From a virus: a DNA stretch of 64,000 nt. Below, piece after piece: positions 28,059 through 39,774 of the stretch (within the stretch, counting starts at the first letter, position 1; each line of letters opens with the position of its first letter). The stretch covers positions 1-64,000 of the IMG/VR virus record IMGVR_UViG_3300043444_000140; one strand, given 5' to 3'. Below the pieces are notes generated by a model, which worked only from the letters and a program-made list of their open reading frames with translations, was not told where the DNA came from and did no database searches. The position numbers and the translations under genes were made by a program.

Positions 28059-28490
28059 ATGGCTGAAACTATTGGTGCACTAGTACCTACCTCAATACCG
28101 TCTCTTACGGAAAACGCAGATATACAGGCTGCTCTAAGACTGTACCACTATGGTGAAAACTTTGATCACACCAACAATGACGCAGGCGATCTTAATCCAG
28201 ACTCAGTTGCTGGACACATTAACGATCTAGATGAAAGAGTTACTGCAGTAGAGACCTCTGGTCCAGGAAGCAAGTATACTGCCGAGGCAGGTCTTCCAGC
28301 AACAATTCCAGATGGCTATATCTGGGTTGACTCAAATGCAAGCCTTGGATCTCAACCAGGTCTTGTAGCAGCCTATCAAACATCAACGCCATCAAATCCA
28401 GTTCTTGGATCTCTATGGGTAGATAGCACGGACACAAATGCACTATCGCTTAAGGTATATGATGGATCTACTTGGAAGGTGATTGTATAA
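28059..28490 (+). CDS. Putative fibre protein
   Basis: Repeated GxxWVDS motif, LKVYDGSTW. Confidence 0.55.
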   Translation: MAETIGALVPTSIPSLTENADIQAALRLYHYGENFDHTNNDAGDLNPDSVAGHINDLDERVTAVETSGPGSKYTAEAGLPATIPDGYIWVDSNASLGSQPGLVAAYQTSTPSNPVLGSLWVDSTDTNALSLKVYDGSTWKVIV

Positions 28491-29134
28491 TGCCACAAAC
28501 AAAGAGCAATGAGTCTAAAGTTGCATACATCTACTCAGCAGAAACTCAGACTTGGCATCCAGTAATTGGTATTGCAAGCACTCAGGCTAACTATACCTGG
28601 ACAGGAACCCACAACTTCAATGACCAGGTCGTAACATTTGAAGAGGTAGTTAGGGCACAGGCTGGTGTCAATAATTTTGATAATGAAACTGCACGTGACG
28701 TAGCCCTTTCGTCACCAGATCATGGAACAGTTGCTTTTGTTAAGACGGTAAACGGAGTTAGCAATGCAAATCAAATCCAGTATTACTCTGGCACAGCACC
28801 TTCAGGTTCGTGGGTAAACTACGCAGACGTATCTTTTGTTCCAAAGACATCAAACTATACCGTCGCCCTATCTGACTCTGGTAAGGCAATTACAGTAAAC
28901 TCTGGTTCAGCAGTAACGATTACAGTTCCTGTAAATTCATCTGTTCCATTTGCAATTGGAACAAGAATTGACGTTATTACGATTGGTAGCGGAGCAGTAG
29001 ACTTTGGAACCTCTGCTGGAGTAATTTTAAATAGCAAAAACTCGTGGAAAAAACTAAATGCCCAGTATTCTGCTGCCACCCTATTGAAGATTGACACAAA
29101 CACCTGGGTACTAATCGGTGACTTAAAGTCTTAG
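28490..29134 (+). CDS. Fibre protein with C-terminal WVLIGDL adaptor domain (module A)
   Basis: C-terminal ~90 aa aligns with C-terminus of 34863..36449. Confidence 0.7.
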   Translation: MPQTKSNESKVAYIYSAETQTWHPVIGIASTQANYTWTGTHNFNDQVVTFEEVVRAQAGVNNFDNETARDVALSSPDHGTVAFVKTVNGVSNANQIQYYSGTAPSGSWVNYADVSFVPKTSNYTVALSDSGKAITVNSGSAVTITVPVNSSVPFAIGTRIDVITIGSGAVDFGTSAGVILNSKNSWKKLNAQYSAATLLKIDTNTWVLIGDLKS

Positions 29135-29147
29135 GAGGGATGTAACG

Positions 29148-29729
29148 TTGGGTCTTGTAGGATATTTCGCTTCATCTTCTTCTAGAGTTATCGTTCCAAG
29201 CGTTCTTGGGCAGTCTGCCAGTTCTGCAAGTTCTATTCTGACCGCTGCAGGATTAACACCGCTTAGTGGAGGCTCTACATCTACAAATGCAACCTCTGGT
29301 AATGATGGCACAGTAGCGTCACAATCAATTTCCTCTGGCTCAGACGCTGAACGTGGCACTAACGTTTCATACGTTCTATATTCTTACACAGCACCATGTG
29401 TGCCTAACTGGCAAGTAACAAACACTACATCATCTTGCAGTAATTGCCAAACAACGTACTATGATACCTATACAGACGTAAATGGATGTGGACAGCAGCC
29501 ATACACATCTCCTAGATCTGGTGGATCTTGCGATTCTGGAACTACATCAACTCAAATTCAGGATTACGTAGAACTAGTTGGACAAAGTATGAATTCTTGT
29601 ACGTACTGGGGATACAGAAGAACTATTGTTACCAACATCTGCACCAACACAGTGGTTTCGGACACAACTGTACGTCGCCCAGAAGGAGACTACACTCAGA
29701 CTGGCACTGGCGGAACATGTGCCAACTAA
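29148..29729 (+). CDS. PASTA-domain plus Cys-rich putative fibre-tip protein
   Basis: VPSVLGQSASSASSILTAAGL...GTVASQS...GTNVSY PASTA pattern; Cys/Thr-rich C-half; AGGAGG RBS, TTG start. Confidence 0.7.
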   Translation: MGLVGYFASSSSRVIVPSVLGQSASSASSILTAAGLTPLSGGSTSTNATSGNDGTVASQSISSGSDAERGTNVSYVLYSYTAPCVPNWQVTNTTSSCSNCQTTYYDTYTDVNGCGQQPYTSPRSGGSCDSGTTSTQIQDYVELVGQSMNSCTYWGYRRTIVTNICTNTVVSDTTVRRPEGDYTQTGTGGTCAN

Positions 29730-29744
29730 TGATATAATTAATTT

Positions 29745-30056
29745 ATGAAAGACAAAGAAACCGCTAAGGTCAAGATAACAGTACTGGTTGGCGAAGAACT
29801 AGTCGGTGCCCACTACATATACGATGAAAACTACGATCTATATAAAGACCTAATTTCTGCAATAAAACGTGAAAACGTAGATAGCATCAGACTTATAGAC
29901 AATCCAAATGATAACTCTGGAAGACTAAAATATAAAACTTTTGGCTTTTTTGAGGGTACAGAACTGGTCGCCACACAAAGCCTTCTATACCCAAACCTTG
30001 AGGGTATGATTGCTGCATACCAGTCAGATCCAACCTTTATAATAGAAGAGTTCTAG
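29745..30056 (+). CDS. Small accessory protein (SDPTF motif)
   Basis: IAAYQSDPTF resembles motifs in 37496 and 38438. Confidence 0.55.
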   Translation: MKDKETAKVKITVLVGEELVGAHYIYDENYDLYKDLISAIKRENVDSIRLIDNPNDNSGRLKYKTFGFFEGTELVATQSLLYPNLEGMIAAYQSDPTFIIEEF

Positions 30057-30057
30057 A

Positions 30058-30303
30058 ATGAGCGAAGATAAAGAACTTACACCATGGCAAAAGTATAAGC
30101 AAAATCTTGGAGAAACTAGACCGTGGGATTTGCTAAACCCAAATACTGAATATGTATCAGACAAAGAGGCATCAAGAAGATATGCAATTTGCAGAGAATG
30201 TCCATTCTTCATATCAATTACAACTCAGTGCAAAAAGTGTGGCTGCCTAATGATAGGTAAAACTAGGATTGCAAAAGCGGAATGCCCAGAACATAAGTGG
30301 TAA
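30058..30303 (+). CDS. Small Cys-rich protein (DUF6171-like), copy 2
   Basis: RPWDL...ICRECPFF...QCKKCGCLM..KT....CP.HKW. Confidence 0.7.
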   Translation: MSEDKELTPWQKYKQNLGETRPWDLLNPNTEYVSDKEASRRYAICRECPFFISITTQCKKCGCLMIGKTRIAKAECPEHKW

Positions 30304-32758: not shown

Positions 32759-34468
32759 ATGGCAACAGTAAACAAAGACTTTAGAATTAAAGCAGGTCTT
32801 GTTGTTGAGGGAGCAAATGCTACCGTTAATGGCGAAGACATCATTACCACAGGAAGTTCGACAGACGACCTACAAGAGGGCAGTACTAATCTGTACTTTA
32901 CCGCTCAAAGAGCAGCAGACGCAGTAGCAGATGAAATCAGTTCGGCAGTATCTACAGCGGTAGATGCACTAACTACAGATGTTATTGAAGAAGGAACAAC
33001 AAACCTTTACTTTACTAATGAACGTGCTCAGGACGCTATCGGGACCGCAATTACAAATGGAACTCAGTCTGGTATTACAGTAACCTATGATGACACAGAT
33101 GGTGAAATTGCCTTCACAGTTGCTGACCAGTGGACAGGTAAAACAACCGATGACCTATCCGAGGGTGCAACAAACCTCTACTTCACCAACCAGAGAGCAC
33201 TTGACGCAACTGCCTCTGCTTACGACGTAGCAGGTGCAGCATCTACAGCCCAGGCTGCAGCAGAAAGTTATGCAGACGGCGTAGCAACTAGTGCAGAAAA
33301 CGCTGCAAAGTTGTATGCTGACGGTCTTGCAGTTAACTACGATCCTGCAGGTTCTGCAGATGCAGCAGAGGCTGCAGCAAATACCTATGCAGACGGAGTT
33401 GCTCTTACAGCAGAAAACAATGCAAAGGGTTATGCAGATACAGTTGCTCTCACGGCAGAGCAGAGTGCTAAGTCATATGCAGACTCTCTTGCAACTAACT
33501 ATGATCCAGCAGGATCTGCCCAGACAGCAGAAACAAACGCTGCATCTTATACAGACACAGCAATTGCAAACCTAGTTGACGGTGCACCAGCACTACTTGA
33601 CACCCTTAACGAACTTGCTGCAGCAATTAACGATGACGCATCATTCGCATCAACAATTGCTACATCAATTGGCGAAAAGGTTTCTAAGTCTGGCGATACC
33701 ATGACTGGAGAACTTGTTCTTGCAGCAGACCCAACACAGGCTCTTGCAGCAGCAACCAAGCAGTATGCAGACTCTGTAGCATCAGATGCATACAATGACG
33801 CAATTGCAACTGCAGATGGAACTGCCCAGACCTACGCAAACACTGCAGAGAATAATGCAAAGTCTTACGCAGACACTAACTTTGTTAACGTTGCAGATCT
33901 GCCTGGACAGTTGGATGACTATGTTCCACTAACAGACAAGGGCACAGCAAACGGTGTAGCAACACTAGACAGCAATGGCTTCGTTCCATCTTCACAGTTG
34001 AACATTGACGTATCTGGAGACATCTCTACAGCAATCAACGCACTTACAACATCGGATATTGAAGAGGGAACAAACCTATACTTCACTGACGAACGTGCAA
34101 TTGATGCGGTATCAGCAGCAGATATCTATCCAAATGCAGTTATTGTTAACAACGTATCTAAGACTGTTGCAAACACCCAGTCTGTATCTACCGCTTCTAC
34201 CGTCTCTGGAATCACCTGGGCAAAGGCAGACTACAAGTCTGCAAAGTTGGTAGTAAAGGCAGCAACTGCAACACATTCACAGGTATCTGAGATTATGGTT
34301 ACCCTAGACTCTTCGGACAACGTAGCGATTACCGAATTTGGTATTGTTTACACCGACACAGAGTTGGCTACCGTTACCGCAGATGTTTCTGGTACTGATG
34401 TTCGTGTTCGTGTAACAACTCTAAACGCATCAACAACTGTAACTGTAGTTGGAACACTATTGATCTAA
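32759..34468 (+). CDS. Long tail-fibre-like protein with internal repeats
   Basis: Four T.D..EG.TNLYFT..RA repeats, multiple A..YAD repeats, AP.LLDTLNELAAAI motif. Confidence 0.75.
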   Translation: MATVNKDFRIKAGLVVEGANATVNGEDIITTGSSTDDLQEGSTNLYFTAQRAADAVADEISSAVSTAVDALTTDVIEEGTTNLYFTNERAQDAIGTAITNGTQSGITVTYDDTDGEIAFTVADQWTGKTTDDLSEGATNLYFTNQRALDATASAYDVAGAASTAQAAAESYADGVATSAENAAKLYADGLAVNYDPAGSADAAEAAANTYADGVALTAENNAKGYADTVALTAEQSAKSYADSLATNYDPAGSAQTAETNAASYTDTAIANLVDGAPALLDTLNELAAAINDDASFASTIATSIGEKVSKSGDTMTGELVLAADPTQALAAATKQYADSVASDAYNDAIATADGTAQTYANTAENNAKSYADTNFVNVADLPGQLDDYVPLTDKGTANGVATLDSNGFVPSSQLNIDVSGDISTAINALTTSDIEEGTNLYFTDERAIDAVSAADIYPNAVIVNNVSKTVANTQSVSTASTVSGITWAKADYKSAKLVVKAATATHSQVSEIMVTLDSSDNVAITEFGIVYTDTELATVTADVSGTDVRVRVTTLNASTTVTVVGTLLI

Positions 34469-34862: not shown

Positions 34863-36449
34863 ATGGCACAAAGAATGCAGCAAAGAAGAGGAACTGCTTC
34901 TCAATGGACATCTGCTAATACCGTTTTGGCTGCAGGTGAGATTGGTTTTGAAACAGATACCAATCAGTTTAAGATGGGTGACGGAGTTACCGCCTGGTCT
35001 TCACTATCGTACTTTAAGAACTTTGAAGATCTAGATACTAGCGGATACATCAAGGATGAAGAGAAGGGTGCCAATAATGGTGTTGCTACTCTCGATGGCT
35101 CTGGAAAACTAACATCCTCACAACTACCAACAATTGACGAACTAGCACAAGATGCTATAAATACCGCAATTATTGCAGGTAGTGGAATTGTCAAGGATTA
35201 TGACGATACAGCCAACCAGATTACAATTGCCGTTTCCGAATCTATCTCTACAACACAATACGTAGACGACGAGATTTCAACACACAATGGTGTCACGACA
35301 AACGTGCATGGAATTGCAGACACATCTCTTCTGGTCACTACAGCAGGAACCCAAACACTTACAAACAAGACATTGTCTGCTGCAGACAACTCCATCACTG
35401 TAAATCTCGCTGACGTTGTTGATGTCACCGCCTCAGTATCAGAATTAAACATTTTAGATGGTGCAACGCTAACAACTACAGAACTTAACTACGTTGACGG
35501 GGTGACCTCAGCGATTCAAGACCAACTGGACGATAAGGCTAATCTTTCTGGTGCAACATTTACAGGTGACGTAACTGTAGAAACAAACATCATCGTTGAG
35601 GGAAACCTTACCGTTTCTGGAACAACGACCACAATAGATGTTACAAATCTAGACGTTACAGACCCACTAATCTATTTGGCTTCAGAGCAATACGATGCAG
35701 ACGTACTTGACATCGGTATTTTTGGTGCATATGGAGATTCAAATCCTGGACACGCACATACAGGTCTTGTCCGTGATGCATCTGACGGAGGTAAGTGGAA
35801 ACTTGTTTCTGGAGCATCAGAGCCAACAGCAAACGTAATTGACTTTACTGGAGTAACATATGACACGCTAAAGGTTGGAGCACTTGAGACTGCAGGTATT
35901 ACTGCAACTGGAGATGTAGACTTTACAGGTGCAACAGTGACTGGAATTGATGCACTTCCATCTCAAACTGGAAACAGTGGAAAGTATCTTACAACAGATG
36001 GCACAGATGCATCTTGGGCGACCTTAAATGCAAGCCCAGCACTTGACGACCTATCTGACGTAACAGTCACTTCAGCAGCATCTAGTGACGTTGTATACTA
36101 CAATGGCTCTGCTTGGGTGAACAAGTACGTTCAGTCAATTCCAACCCTTACAAATGGTCAGTCTGGAACATCGTATACCTTGGTTCTTGGAGATGCTGGT
36201 AAAATTGTCGAAGTTTCAAACTCTTCTGCAATCACTCTAACTATTCCAACTAATGCCGATGTCGCATATCCAGTAGGAACACAAATCACAATTCTTCAAA
36301 CAGGTGCAGGACAAATTACTGTGGCTGCTCCTTCTGGCGGTACTTTAAATGCTACTCCAGGAACTAAACTTCGTGCTCAGTGGTCATCTGCAACACTTCT
36401 AAAGAGAGCAACAGACACCTGGGTGCTGATCGGAGACCTGACAGCATAA
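34863..36449 (+). CDS. Tail fibre with Mtd-N/hyaluronidase-type N-terminus and WVLIGDL C-terminal domain (module B)
   Basis: QRRGTASQWTSAN.VLAAGEIGFETDT..FKMGDG..AW..L.Y. Confidence 0.8.
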   Translation: MAQRMQQRRGTASQWTSANTVLAAGEIGFETDTNQFKMGDGVTAWSSLSYFKNFEDLDTSGYIKDEEKGANNGVATLDGSGKLTSSQLPTIDELAQDAINTAIIAGSGIVKDYDDTANQITIAVSESISTTQYVDDEISTHNGVTTNVHGIADTSLLVTTAGTQTLTNKTLSAADNSITVNLADVVDVTASVSELNILDGATLTTTELNYVDGVTSAIQDQLDDKANLSGATFTGDVTVETNIIVEGNLTVSGTTTTIDVTNLDVTDPLIYLASEQYDADVLDIGIFGAYGDSNPGHAHTGLVRDASDGGKWKLVSGASEPTANVIDFTGVTYDTLKVGALETAGITATGDVDFTGATVTGIDALPSQTGNSGKYLTTDGTDASWATLNASPALDDLSDVTVTSAASSDVVYYNGSAWVNKYVQSIPTLTNGQSGTSYTLVLGDAGKIVEVSNSSAITLTIPTNADVAYPVGTQITILQTGAGQITVAAPSGGTLNATPGTKLRAQWSSATLLKRATDTWVLIGDLTA

Positions 36450-36970
36450 TGGCACTATCAATTGGTAGAGTAGCAGCATCAGTTAGAAAACGCTTTGTTG
36501 ACACGTTTACTAGAACCAATACGTCTGGCTCCCTGGGTACCGCTACCGATGGATCTTCTTGGAATGCCACAAAAGGAACATTTACTGTAGACACCAACAA
36601 GGCAAAGGCAGCAACTACCGACTATCAGATTGCAACTCAGTCAATGCCATACCCAAACGTTGACCTTACGATTAAGTCTGTAACACAGGGTACTGGTGCA
36701 GCATTGTGGGTTACAGACTCTGGCAATTGGTGGGCAGTTGGCACAGACACTGGAGCAGGACAGTCCTGCAACTGTCAAACATGTTCTAATGCGTCATACG
36801 ATCCTGGATACTATTATGCTGGAAACACAAACTATGTTTATTCATGCCAGACATGCTCTAGTTATGGATGTAGCACATGTTACAACGCTTATACATGTCA
36901 GACATGTTATAACGCAAGCAATGCGATCTACTACTATCAGTCTTCAAACGGAGCCTGCATGATGCAGTAA
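36449..36970 (+). CDS. Cys/Tyr-rich tip protein, N-half
   Basis: TAATG coupling; DTFTR.N...LG beta-sandwich start, then CQTC repeats. Confidence 0.7.
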   Translation: MALSIGRVAASVRKRFVDTFTRTNTSGSLGTATDGSSWNATKGTFTVDTNKAKAATTDYQIATQSMPYPNVDLTIKSVTQGTGAALWVTDSGNWWAVGTDTGAGQSCNCQTCSNASYDPGYYYAGNTNYVYSCQTCSSYGCSTCYNAYTCQTCYNASNAIYYYQSSNGACMMQ

Positions 36971-36987
36971 GGGAAAGGTATAGAAAA

Positions 36988-37470
36988 ATGGGAAGAACTT
37001 GTCTTATTGGTTACAACGCTAGCAATCCGTATTCGTGCAATTGTAGCGGAGGTAACGCATACTCTTGTAACTGTTCAACAAATTATTACTCTTGTAACTG
37101 TGCCACTAACGTTTCTGGGTACAACTCTGTCTATGTTGCACCATCATATTATGCAGGATATACCTATAGTTGTAACTGTCAAACATGCTATCCAATTTAC
37201 ATAAGAGTAATCCAGTCAGCAGCATCTGTGATAAGCACAATAACAACATGGACACTAACTGCTTTAGCCCAATCACTGAGAATCAAGACAAACTCAAATC
37301 AGATTACCGTTCAGGCATTTTCAGACGACAGTCTAGTAACTCAGATTGGATCAGACCTGGTATACACTGGTTCTGGTGTAGTAGTAACATCAAACTATGG
37401 AATTGTAGTTTATCCATCTTCAACTTCCCAGGGTACTACCCTAGGAACAGTTGAGATTAATAAAAACTAA
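36988..37470 (+). CDS. Cys/Tyr-rich tip protein, C-half
   Basis: GAAAGG RBS; YSCNC repeats, then beta-rich end. Confidence 0.7.
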   Translation: MGRTCLIGYNASNPYSCNCSGGNAYSCNCSTNYYSCNCATNVSGYNSVYVAPSYYAGYTYSCNCQTCYPIYIRVIQSAASVISTITTWTLTALAQSLRIKTNSNQITVQAFSDDSLVTQIGSDLVYTGSGVVVTSNYGIVVYPSSTSQGTTLGTVEINKN

Positions 37471-37495
37471 TATATAATATATACAGGAGGAAAAT

Positions 37496-37732
37496 ATGTC
37501 AGAAAACTTACCAGTAGTACCGACACTAGATAGTGCGGTTCCAGTACCAAGAAACAACGACTATGACCTAGCAATGGTCATTGAGGGCGTAGTTTATGAG
37601 GTCATGAACGTAGATGGAAAGTCTGCAGCCAGATTCTTGGCACAGCCTACCTTTGTTCAGGTCGCAGCAAACTCAGTGTTTCCTGGATGGGTCTACAACT
37701 CAGACACTCAAACATTTTCGCAGCCAGAGTAG
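37496..37732 (+). CDS. Small accessory protein
   Basis: AMVIEGVVYEVM...FLAQPTFVQV; paralog of C-half of 38438. Confidence 0.6.
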   Translation: MSENLPVVPTLDSAVPVPRNNDYDLAMVIEGVVYEVMNVDGKSAARFLAQPTFVQVAANSVFPGWVYNSDTQTFSQPE

Positions 37733-37763
37733 TGTATGATATAATCATATAGAGGAGTTCTAT

Positions 37764-38438
37764 ATGAAACTAATACACTTTTTTGCTAAAAAAGAATTTG
37801 ACGATTTAGGTCAGCCTTTACCGATGAAAAACGTTCTGCCAGACTGGTGGAAAAACGGTGAGGCTGATCTTTCGTCTGGTGAAGCAGGAATGAAAAAATG
37901 CATCCCATTCCTAGACGTAATGTTAAGTGGGTATACGCTTACCACACCGATCGATATTTTTGTATCTAAAAAAGAAGATGGATCTGTCCACGTATCGTGG
38001 AATGCAGAAAAGGGTCTTGCAGATTTTGTTGGAGACAGACCAGAAGAGTTGGGGAGAACTATTCCTAGACCAGCAGGTCACCTAGACACGCACTTTGTCT
38101 TTAAGGGGTTTTGGGGCTGGAAGGTTCCAAAGGGGTACTCTGTACTAGTTACCCACCCATTTAATAGATTTGATCTACCATTCACAACAATGTCAGCACT
38201 TATGGATAGCGACGAATTTTACCCACCAGGAAATATTCCGTTTTTCCTAAAGGACGGCTTTGTTGGTGTCATTCCTGCAGGAACGCCATTTGCACAACTG
38301 CTACCAGTAAAGAGAGACTCCTGGAAGATGATTGATAACAATCAGGGACTTATGGATTACCACCACATCCACAACGTTGTTAGAAAGCCAGGTAACTCAT
38401 ATAAGAAACTTATGTGGCACCGAAAGGAATACAACTAA
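37764..38438 (+). CDS. DUF6065-like protein, copy 1
   Basis: KKCIPFLD...GY, P.GYS.L..HP.NR.DLPF, IPAGTP..Q..P.KR; family name unverified. Confidence 0.55.
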   Translation: MKLIHFFAKKEFDDLGQPLPMKNVLPDWWKNGEADLSSGEAGMKKCIPFLDVMLSGYTLTTPIDIFVSKKEDGSVHVSWNAEKGLADFVGDRPEELGRTIPRPAGHLDTHFVFKGFWGWKVPKGYSVLVTHPFNRFDLPFTTMSALMDSDEFYPPGNIPFFLKDGFVGVIPAGTPFAQLLPVKRDSWKMIDNNQGLMDYHHIHNVVRKPGNSYKKLMWHRKEYN

Positions 38439-38818
38439 TGGCTAAGAAAAAGTTTGAAGAGAAAGATCATCTGCACAAGCATCAGCACAGCGATGGACCA
38501 GTAGTTATGTCTACGCTAGATCTTATTAAGTTGCTTCTTTTGAATAAGTTTGCTTTTGGACCAAAGGATCCAGTAGAGGATGAAGAGATTGAAGTGCTTA
38601 GAGAGCGAAAGACTCCAAAGAATGTTTCCATAAATCACATTGCCGTAATCTTAGACGGTCAGGTGCAGGAAGTTATCCGTGCAGAAAATAGGCTAGCAGC
38701 ACTACTTCTTAGCGATCCAGAATTTGTTGAGTTCGATGTTCACCAACAAGTTATGGTTGGAGACTATTTTTCAGACGGTAAGTTTATAAAGGGAGATTTA
38801 GATGGCAAAGAAGATTAA
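38438..38818 (+). CDS. Small accessory protein
   Basis: IAVILDGQVQEVI...LLLSDPEFVE. Confidence 0.6.
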   Translation: MAKKKFEEKDHLHKHQHSDGPVVMSTLDLIKLLLLNKFAFGPKDPVEDEEIEVLRERKTPKNVSINHIAVILDGQVQEVIRAENRLAALLLSDPEFVEFDVHQQVMVGDYFSDGKFIKGDLDGKED

Positions 38819-39500
38819 GTTTTACTCTACTAACACAAAGTTTGAACTAGAAAAGCCAGTACCAGCATCAAAGGCAGTTCCTCAATGGTTTAGGAAAATG
38901 AAAAATGTCAAAGATCACAACATGACAATTAAGAGATGTGTTCCAGTTCTAGATGCACTAACATCTGGATATATGATCACTCTGAATGCTGACATGATCT
39001 GGGATAACGAGTCTGAGTCATTCCTGACTAAATCAAAACTCCCTATGAACTCAGATCACATGCCAATGCAAACAGAAGACATGGATATCTCGGATGACCT
39101 TGCTCCACAGCCACACAAATGGCTAAACTATTGGTACATAAAGACACCACCAGGATACAGCACACTCTTTGTTCATCCACTCAACAGAACAGACCTACCA
39201 TTCCAAACAATTGCTGGTGTCGTGGATACTGACAAGCATCCAACTCCAGTAAACTTTCCATTCTTCCTGAAGAAGGGTTTCTTTGGCACTATTCCTGCAG
39301 GAACTCCGATAGTTCAAGCAATACCCTTTAAGAGAGATGACTGGAATGCCAAGATTATTGATCAAGGCAAGTCATACTCTTATCCAAAAGCATTTGAGTC
39401 CTTTAACCCACCTTTTGCGTGGTATAAGCGTAAGTGGTGGACAAGAAAGAGGTACTCTGTAGATAATACAAAAGAGGTAAACCTACATGACGAGCAATAA
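38802..39500 (+). CDS. DUF6065-like protein, copy 2
   Basis: Clear paralog of 37764..38438. Confidence 0.55.
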   Translation: MAKKIKFYSTNTKFELEKPVPASKAVPQWFRKMKNVKDHNMTIKRCVPVLDALTSGYMITLNADMIWDNESESFLTKSKLPMNSDHMPMQTEDMDISDDLAPQPHKWLNYWYIKTPPGYSTLFVHPLNRTDLPFQTIAGVVDTDKHPTPVNFPFFLKKGFFGTIPAGTPIVQAIPFKRDDWNAKIIDQGKSYSYPKAFESFNPPFAWYKRKWWTRKRYSVDNTKEVNLHDEQ

Positions 39501-39774
39501 ACTTCCAAAAGTTCCAAAACTTGTACCACCAACAAACGCAGAGCCAAAACTTAAGCCTGTCAGACCGTGGGATCTATTCAATAAAAATAAAGAGCGTGTT
39601 TCAAAAGACATTAAAGATGAAAGAATGTCTATATGCGAATCATGCCCATTCTTTATTCAATCAACAAAACAGTGTAAAAAGTGTGGATGTCTTATGCACT
39701 TAAAAACACAACTTGCAGATGCATATTGCCCTATGGGAAAGTGGCACCAAGTAGATCCTTCTTTTAAGGAATAA
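39487..39774 (+). CDS. Small Cys-rich protein (DUF6171-like), copy 3
   Basis: RPWDL...ICESCPFF...QCKKCGCLMHLKT....CPMGKW. Confidence 0.7.
   Translation: MTSNKLPKVPKLVPPTNAEPKLKPVRPWDLFNKNKERVSKDIKDERMSICESCPFFIQSTKQCKKCGCLMHLKTQLADAYCPMGKWHQVDPSFKE

Follow-up and report, generated by a model that had tools for sequence, protein, structure and literature searches.

Two adjacent genes carry the halves of one mirrored cysteine ladder

The DNA analysed here (referred to as the window) comprises the first 64 kb (64,000 nt) of the 107-kb IMG/VR virus record IMGVR_UViG_3300043444_000140, which is ~99% complete. At 36449–37470 it contains two adjacent genes whose cysteine motifs mirror each other across a short intergenic spacer; both genes, as well as the tail-fibre module genes that flank them, lie on the plus strand. 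Gene 1 (36449–36970; 173 amino acids, aa) runs from an ATG at 36449, i.e., the same Met at which its homologues begin, to a TAA stop at 36968–36970, and gene 2 (36988–37470; 160 aa) is read in a frame other than that of gene 1. The 17-nt spacer separating them (36971–36987) holds a Shine–Dalgarno (SD)-like motif (GGGAAAGG) at 36971–36978, 9 nt upstream of the gene 2 ATG.

Residues 1–106 of gene 1 (36449–36766) are predicted to form the N-terminal half of a concanavalin A (ConA)-like beta-sandwich, and residues 107–173 together with the stop codon (36767–36970) make up an ascending stalk arm with 10 Cys, arranged as one CxCxxC, three CxxC, and a single Cys. The 3′ end of gene 1 encodes YNASN and then this last Cys, three residues ahead of the TAA. 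Gene 2 opens with MGRTC followed by YNASN, and its residues 1–67 (36988–37188) make up a descending stalk arm that starts with an MGRxC head and again has 10 Cys, now in the order of a single Cys, three CxC, and one CxCxxC. Its residues 68–160 plus stop codon (37189–37470), beginning with YPxYIRV, are predicted to form the C-terminal half of the sandwich.

When the motifs are abbreviated to H (CxCxxC), B (CxxC), A (CxC), and c (single Cys), the pair reads HBBBc / cAAAH, with the base CxCxxC opposite a CxCxxC, three CxxC opposite three CxC, and the single Cys at the tip opposite another single Cys. The initial annotation had claimed such mirrored Cys motifs across two genes, and reading of the open reading frames (ORFs) bears this out, while the mirror statistics given below place the pattern beyond chance. 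The 134-residue Cys region as a whole consists for 60% of Tyr, Cys, Ser, and Asn, and contains one Asp and one Arg, whereas His, Lys, and Glu do not occur. In the nucleotide sequence, both base clamps (36767–36783 and 37171–37187) are 17-mers of 94% identity located 404 nt apart, and 27-nt direct repeats occur within each arm (36862–36915 and 37060–37109); both the clamp 17-mers and the arm repeats are plausible substrates for rung expansion, contraction, or deletion.

The gene break is genuine and conserved

The break between both genes had been regarded in the initial annotation as clean and unlike an indel error, a view that is upheld by bridging contigs from other studies and by the conservation of split forms. 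Twenty sequencing runs from 10 studies contain the stretch wholly or partly, and Logan contigs from runs of other studies bridge positions 36968–36990 with zero indels (X7 record 12, covering 36512–37600, and X14 record 8, covering 36748–37030). The junction was compared at the DNA level in the window and in the three loci L002, L020, and L021. In L002 (an IMG/VR contig of 95–99% identity) the junction is identical to that of the window, and in L020 and L021 (85% identity) the stop codon TAA, SD-like motif, and start codon ATG are all retained. The spacer in the latter two loci measures 15 nt, i.e., 2 nt shorter than in the window, which places the halves in one frame with a TAA and a TAG between them.

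At the protein level, split forms were recovered down to ~50% identity, in 11 clusters of short gene-1 forms (145–188 aa) and nine clusters of short gene-2 forms (128–171 aa). Every gene-1 split form terminates in QxSNxxC plus two or three residues, and every gene-2 form opens with MGRxC. Q164, S166, N167, and C170 are invariant in an alignment of 12 gene-1 split forms, as are M1, G2, R3, and C5 in an alignment of nine gene-2 split forms, and we infer that these conserved tip residues serve assembly or binding. Descent of the MGRxC head from GNR[FY]C, a motif that certain fused homologues carry, was considered as well, but dropped given that GNR[FY]C is not apical in the mirrored register. Three more split pairs with mirrored arms were identified (i.e., HHHc/cHHH, Hccc/cccH, and HBc/cAH), with adjacency of the partners (P0003/P0033, P0004/P0038, and P0006/P0036) assumed solely from their contigs being equally long.

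The split forms group together in a phylogeny of the N-terminal domain, and constraining them to one clade was not rejected (approximately unbiased test, p = 0.82), the likelihood of the constrained tree even being above that of the free search. The first ~55 residues of P0193 (a fused form with period-5 GCTGY-type arms) are almost identical to those of the split form P0006. As judged from the sequences, this segment indicates mosaic recombination between split and fused lineages in the N-terminal domain, and because of such recombination the N-terminal-domain tree is blurred.

A single fused protein might still arise from both genes by programmed recoding across the junction (i.e., by frameshifting, stop read-through, or a ribosome hop), and the frame of gene 2 is indeed open from 36913, so that it reaches back 58 nt into gene 1. 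However, no slippery site of the X XXY YYZ type is present within 36913–36970, the SD and ATG are conserved, and the halves are called as separate proteins in many independent assemblies, with all gene-2 forms starting with M-G-R. Moreover, since the frame relation between the halves differs in L020 and L021, where two in-frame stops separate them, a conserved frameshift, hop, or read-through is excluded, and we consider recoding very improbable. That the split would stem from an assembly or sequencing artefact, or from a recent inactivating mutation yielding a pseudogene, is scarcely credible either: the region is repetitive and of low complexity, with 27-nt direct repeats, and regions of this kind are prone to misassembly, but the same indel-free junction recurs in the contigs of other studies and the sequence is found in runs of 10 studies, while across identities of 50–95% the split persists, neither half is interrupted, and the terminal motifs do not vary. 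The split is a natural gene fission inside a single domain, without intein and without recoding. A split intein was rejected as a candidate, as neither half has a Pfam domain and only three and four residues lie beyond the terminal Cys on the respective sides.

Fused homologues form a large family with a variable insert

A search for fused homologues with a variable insert had been put forward as a check in the initial annotation, and such forms not only exist but predominate. A profile of 16 fused forms yielded 794 clusters at 50% identity (E ≤ 1e-3), including 253 with E ≤ 1e-30, and the best 150 of the 794 clusters measure 245–569 aa. Across the family, the Cys-ladder insert comprises 60–370 residues and carries from 4 to >40 Cys, and it resides in a single ORF at all IMG/VR and JGI loci except L002, L020, and L021. 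No split/fused polymorphism was seen among close relatives, because the nearest fused form is just 57% identical to gene 1. Between several fused phages that are close relatives, the insert has changed more quickly than its surroundings (76% identity vs. 95–100% for the flanks).

Pfam and PHROG returned zero matches for gene 1 or gene 2, and among the INPHARED phages no DNA or protein match was found for either half, nor for a 1243-aa neighbour. Sequence searches of the PDB, including one with a 78-member profile, revealed no relative; the sole matches, all at chance level (E 0.07–8), were between the Tyr/Ser/Asn-rich arm and antibody heavy chains. In the literature on Cys-rich fibres of freshwater actinophages and on “disulfide ladder” hairpins, nothing was found concerning a Cys-ladder lectin family.

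The flanks are predicted to be two halves of one beta-sandwich

The initial annotation had read the regions flanking the Cys ladder as halves of one beta-sandwich, and structure prediction of fused and read-through homologues agrees with this reading. The AlphaFold2 (AF2) model of the fused homologue P0111, whose motif order (HBBccAAH) corresponds to the arm orientation of the window, has a mean predicted local distance difference test (pLDDT) score of 83.6, with both flanks >90 and the insert at 46–65. As a proxy for the split pair of L020, both in-frame stops were read as Gly so as to obtain a single-chain read-through with a 6-residue linker (P0189), and its AF2 model scores 97–98 in both halves and <50 in the insert. 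The part of these models homologous to residues 1–106 of gene 1 thus ranges from >90 to 98, and that corresponding to residues 68–160 of gene 2 reaches 97–98 in the read-through model.

An exhaustive structural comparison of the P0111 model via VIA-align retrieved the carbohydrate-binding module (CBM) CBM66 (4b1m; Z 16.8, root-mean-square deviation 2.4 Å over 150 residues), the baseplate protein of mycobacteriophage Douge (8zdo; Z 15.2), and the receptor-binding domain of TM4 gp23 (9n6a; Z 14.5), next to many legume-lectin-like and GH43-appended sandwiches. These matches extend over model residues ~15–277, covering both halves and running to the last residue of the C-terminal one. Foldseek against the PDB gave no match at E ≤ 1e-3, and weakly listed the same lectin folds as the exhaustive search. 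In BFVD, the next relatives after the family members themselves were minor tail proteins of Arthrobacter, Gordonia, Mycobacterium, Rhodococcus, and Streptomyces phages. At the level of the predicted fold, the family is a ConA-like phage lectin/CBM domain that falls outside every curated sequence family tested.

The two arms pair in mirrored register

The nested pairing of the arms, also part of the initial annotation, was corroborated across the family, both by the mirror statistics and by complementary repeats that have changed places reciprocally between relatives. Among 21 fused homologues with informative motifs, motif types agreed in mirrored register at 0.91, vs. 0.53 after shuffling and 0.31 in direct-repeat register. 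Agreement in Cys spacing, scored over 53 inserts, was likewise highest in mirrored register (0.66 vs. 0.29 shuffled and 0.21 direct; Wilcoxon p = 2e-10). The Cys count of the insert was even in 103 of 103 fused members, 102 of which have no Cys outside the insert. Clamp types on the N- and C-side co-varied in 102 of the 103 (CxC with CxxC in 61 and CxCxxC with CxCxxC in 41), the single exception probably being mis-anchored; an independent-contrast test of this covariation comprised only two supported pairs and was underpowered. Mirrored CxC:CxxC rungs were encountered 44 times against 13.7 expected, and CxC:CxC rungs once.

Furthermore, the orientation of such rungs can be flipped: in several fused forms CxC belongs to the N-arm and CxxC to the C-arm, opposite to the window and P0111. 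Two fused loci with 96% identical flanks (L014 and L016) differ reciprocally at the same two mirrored rungs, where SPSYP-type segments of the N-arm are opposite GYYYA-type segments of the C-arm in L014, whereas the two types have traded arms in L016. In the inserts of both loci, KxDWYR is located opposite AxYAYN at one rung, with the reverse arrangement at the next. On the evidence of these sequences, the reciprocal swaps are an apparent compensatory covariation of whole repeat modules, and from this covariation a direct antiparallel contact between the arms can be argued.

A proposed fissioned lectin domain with a cross-linked stalk

We propose, with a probability of roughly three in four, that the two ORFs of the window result from a natural fission of the gene for one protein of a large, unannotated family encoded in the tail-fibre modules of freshwater phages, and that their chains co-fold. 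The ancestor would have been a single-chain ConA-like lectin/CBM sandwich, the middle of which was replaced by a two-armed stalk rich in Tyr, Ser, Asn, and Cys, with the ascending and descending arms nested in antiparallel fashion such that each Cys would face a Cys motif of the other arm. In the lineage of the window, the coding sequence would then have been cut in the apical loop between the last Cys pair, leaving gene 1 to encode the N-terminal half and the ascending arm, and gene 2 (with its own SD and ATG) to encode the descending arm and the C-terminal half. Co-folding of both chains would complete the sandwich and zip the stalk, and each chain would leave a short end at the tip, gene 1 its C-terminal tail and gene 2 its N-terminal head.

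The rungs of this stalk, for which the initial annotation had allowed either Zn or disulfides, are probably cross-arm disulfides, with a single bond at each single-Cys rung, two at each CxC:CxxC rung, and three at the CxCxxC clamp, and the tip rung of split forms would be inter-chain. In the latter rung, the Cys located 3–4 residues from the end of gene 1 would be bonded to Cys5 of gene 2. Across the family, 627 c:c rungs were counted vs. 44 four-Cys CxC:CxxC rungs, and the Cys count modulo 4 equals 2 in 60 of 103 inserts. Because single-Cys rungs dominate and because of this remainder, the Cys of a monomer cannot all be accommodated in Cys4 metal sites. A disulfide ladder is the simplest uniform reading of the rungs.

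A number of observations weigh against the proposed explanation, either as a whole or in its chemistry. No RNA run is listed among the sequencing runs that contain the stretch, and the invariance of the MGRxC head could stem partly from translation-initiation constraints. The insert is not always the fastest-evolving part, being 91% identical between the window and L020 where the flanks are 80–84% identical. In the AF2 models of P0111 and the L020 read-through, the stalk scores a pLDDT of 37–65 and has no confident secondary structure; the read-through model supports the prediction of two halves of one sandwich, but its signal is largely inherited from the alignment of fused homologues and does not represent a heterodimer. 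As for the disulfides, the even Cys count is a consequence of mirror pairing and uninformative on chemistry, and virions assemble in a reducing cytoplasm. Moreover, neither thioredoxin nor DsbA was found in the 107-kb record, nor was a sulfhydryl oxidase, although the Erv1/Alr search controls themselves matched nowhere.

The low confidence of AF2 in a hairpin would also suit arms that are not paired within one protein, but that stack into a solenoid braced by disulfides (of the type known from beetle antifreeze proteins) or pair between subunits only, and repeats with periods of 5, 7, 8, and 9 residues would be unusual in a regular two-stranded sheet. Antiparallel pairing between the subunits of an oligomer would, in addition, yield an identical mirror signal. 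A solenoid, however, predicts the direct register, for which agreement was 0.21–0.31 vs. 0.66–0.91 for the mirrored one, and both the swaps at mirrored positions and the clamp covariation indicate contacts from N-arm to C-arm, so that arms not paired within one protein seem unlikely. A second alternative leaves the split, the co-folding, and the nested arms unchanged and replaces the disulfides by metal sites, with CxC:CxxC rungs as Cys4 zinc sites, the CxCxxC clamp as a Cys6 cluster, and, in a trimeric fibre, rings of six Cys that could bind metal along the axis like the HxH iron ladder of the T4 gp37 needle. Nested CxxC pairs bind zinc in DnaJ, four-Cys rungs of CxC and CxxC are common, and the 20 Cys of the window can be divided into metal sites; synthesis in a reducing cytoplasm with no thiol oxidase found, as well as the conservation of a small Cys-rich DUF6171-like protein in the module, would fit this chemistry too. 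On the other hand, the dominance of c:c rungs and the remainder of 2 in 60 of 103 inserts speak against it, as do the lack of a Gly/Pro knuckle signature in the motifs and the lack of His in the insert of the window, and no interweaving into trimers is known for ConA-like adhesin domains. Metal coordination is regarded as a credible but less probable chemistry than cross-arm disulfides.

With the two chains taken as co-folding halves of one fissioned domain, it can tentatively be suggested that their arms pair via a small code of complementary, non-identical modules (i.e., CxC/CxxC, SPSYP/GYYYA, and KxDWYR/AxYAYN) that could be added, deleted, and swapped between arms provided that they stay complementary, comparable to compensatory changes in an RNA helix, resulting in a cross-linked receptor probe of tunable length and surface on a lectin base. 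Since pairing would be encoded along the whole stem, the stem would tolerate a cut at the loop, and the open tip of the two-chain version, with its invariant tail and head residues, could then act as a specific binding tip.

Module context and likely role

Gene 1 is immediately preceded by a tail-fibre gene (34863–36449; 528 aa) with a Pfam Mtd_N domain at residues 6–43 (E 3.8e-13) and matches to PHROG tail-fibre and minor-tail families. The stop of this fibre gene and the start of gene 1 overlap (TAATG), with the A of the ATG at 36449 being shared with the TAA. A C-terminal domain of the type found in this 528-aa fibre is encoded immediately 5′ of the Cys-ladder gene in ~40 loci, throughout which the gene order is conserved at 30–60% identity, i.e., fibre, Cys-ladder lectin, 78-aa protein, DUF6065-like protein, 134-aa protein, DUF6065-like protein, and DUF6171-like protein. 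In the window, the genes downstream of gene 2 (37496–39774) follow this order and encode proteins of 78 aa, 224 aa (DUF6065-like), 134 aa, 232 aa (DUF6065-like), and 95 aa (Cys-rich, DUF6171-like).

The 224-aa and 232-aa paralogues both match phrog_7084, with the DUF6065 label originating from Atlas, and the 95-aa protein matches phrog_13558 as well as DUF6171 (E 1e-5; 26.3 bits, just under the 27-bit cut-off). These conserved downstream proteins may be candidate assembly or maturation factors of the fibre tip. Among isolated viruses, the 224-aa DUF6065-like protein (37764–38438) matches only 50 records at ~30% identity, nearly all of which are haloarchaeal tailed viruses (HF1, HF2, HRTV, HJTV), together with one cyanophage; such a cross-domain distribution is unusual for a fibre-module gene.

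Three features make a distal fibre adhesin, with a stalk that would aid receptor contact, the most likely role of the two-gene protein: its coding region directly follows and overlaps a fibre gene, its predicted lectin fold is also that of phage receptor-binding domains with solved structures, and its stalk resembles a paratope in composition. A second, shorter fibre-tip module is situated at 28472–30303 and consists of a 220-aa fibre with a C-terminal domain as in the 528-aa fibre, a 193-aa protein with scattered Cys (outside the Cys-ladder family), a 103-aa protein, and an 81-aa DUF6171-like protein. Another fibre of 569 aa (32759–34468) carries several copies of a ~15-residue motif, EG(T)TNLYFT..RA, near both ends along with Ala-rich repeats, and its PHROG matches are exclusively to tail and tail-fibre families.

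Implications

Freshwater phages encode hundreds of diverged members of the Cys-ladder family in the host-recognition module, and no annotation, solved structure, or literature was found for them. If the proposed explanation is true, it represents a new phage-adhesin architecture in which a lectin-fold base carries a cross-linked stalk of variable length. The window would then provide a natural single domain encoded by two genes that needs reassembly, useful for complementation studies and for the engineering of split binders. The heterotypic pairing of the arms with reciprocal swaps would likewise be a rare case of compensatory covariation at the level of modules, which could help in predicting or designing scaffolds of two stapled chains. 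A question that follows is how a protein with 20 to >40 paired cysteines matures in a reducing host cell. The sole thiol-redox gene found in the 107-kb record is a glutaredoxin-family gene located outside the window (G000:C1:79205–79375; E 2.5e-15).

Comparison with known systems

The closest structural counterparts are the ConA-like phage receptor-binding lectin domains (4b1m, 9n6a, 8zdo, and the DUF7257 minor tail proteins), with which the flanks share a predicted two-sheet beta-sandwich (Z 14.5–16.8). Similar as well is the position of the Cys-ladder gene in a tail-fibre module, directly behind a fibre gene. Identity to these lectin relatives is nevertheless 8–10%, without detectable sequence relationship, and in contrast to them the family has a mid-domain Cys-ladder insert and, in the lineage of the window, encodes the single domain by two genes.

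The stalk itself can be compared with the cystine ladders of theta-defensins and of HAP2 from green algae, where a cystine-ladder-like insert is found in a loop of a beta-rich domain (PMC6327110). Nested, parallel-rung Cys pairs on two antiparallel arms appear to be common to both, although the bonds are inferred in our case, and insertion in a loop of a beta-rich domain is shared with algal HAP2. Those ladders, however, comprise three disulfides in 18–37 residues vs. the 4 to >40 Cys found here, and the Cys-ladder family additionally features mixed rungs (1+1, 2+2, and 3+3 Cys), arm repeats that are complementary without being identical, and a tip that is open in some members. The DnaJ/Hsp40 zinc finger also staples a hairpin-like excursion by means of nested Cys motifs, but its CxxCxGxG motif is absent here, with CxC, CxxC, and CxCxxC being followed by Tyr, Ser, or Asn instead of GxG, so that the likeness is an analogy of topology only. 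The CxC:CxxC or c:c rungs and their highly variable number further set the Cys-ladder family apart from DnaJ.

Among phage fibres, the needle of the T4 gp37 long tail fibre (Bartual et al. 2010; PDB 2XGF) is reportedly an interwoven trimer with an HxH iron ladder. As in the stalk proposed here, a chain at the fibre tip runs out and back, and residues that bind metal or form cross-links recur at regular intervals on the outward as well as the return pass. Unlike this His-based interwoven trimer, in which each needle strand is a single chain, the stalk of the window has no His in its 134-residue insert and would stand on a lectin-fold base.

Finally, the arrangement of both genes resembles that of naturally split or “fractured” genes (PMC2677866), in that adjacent co-oriented genes with their own start signals encode products matching parts of a protein that is fused elsewhere. 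The cut in the window differs from fissions of that type by its position within one structural domain, at the apex of a stalk, instead of between domains. Compared with other split proteins there is no intein or ligation element, and covalent reunion of the two chains would need the Cys pair at the tip.

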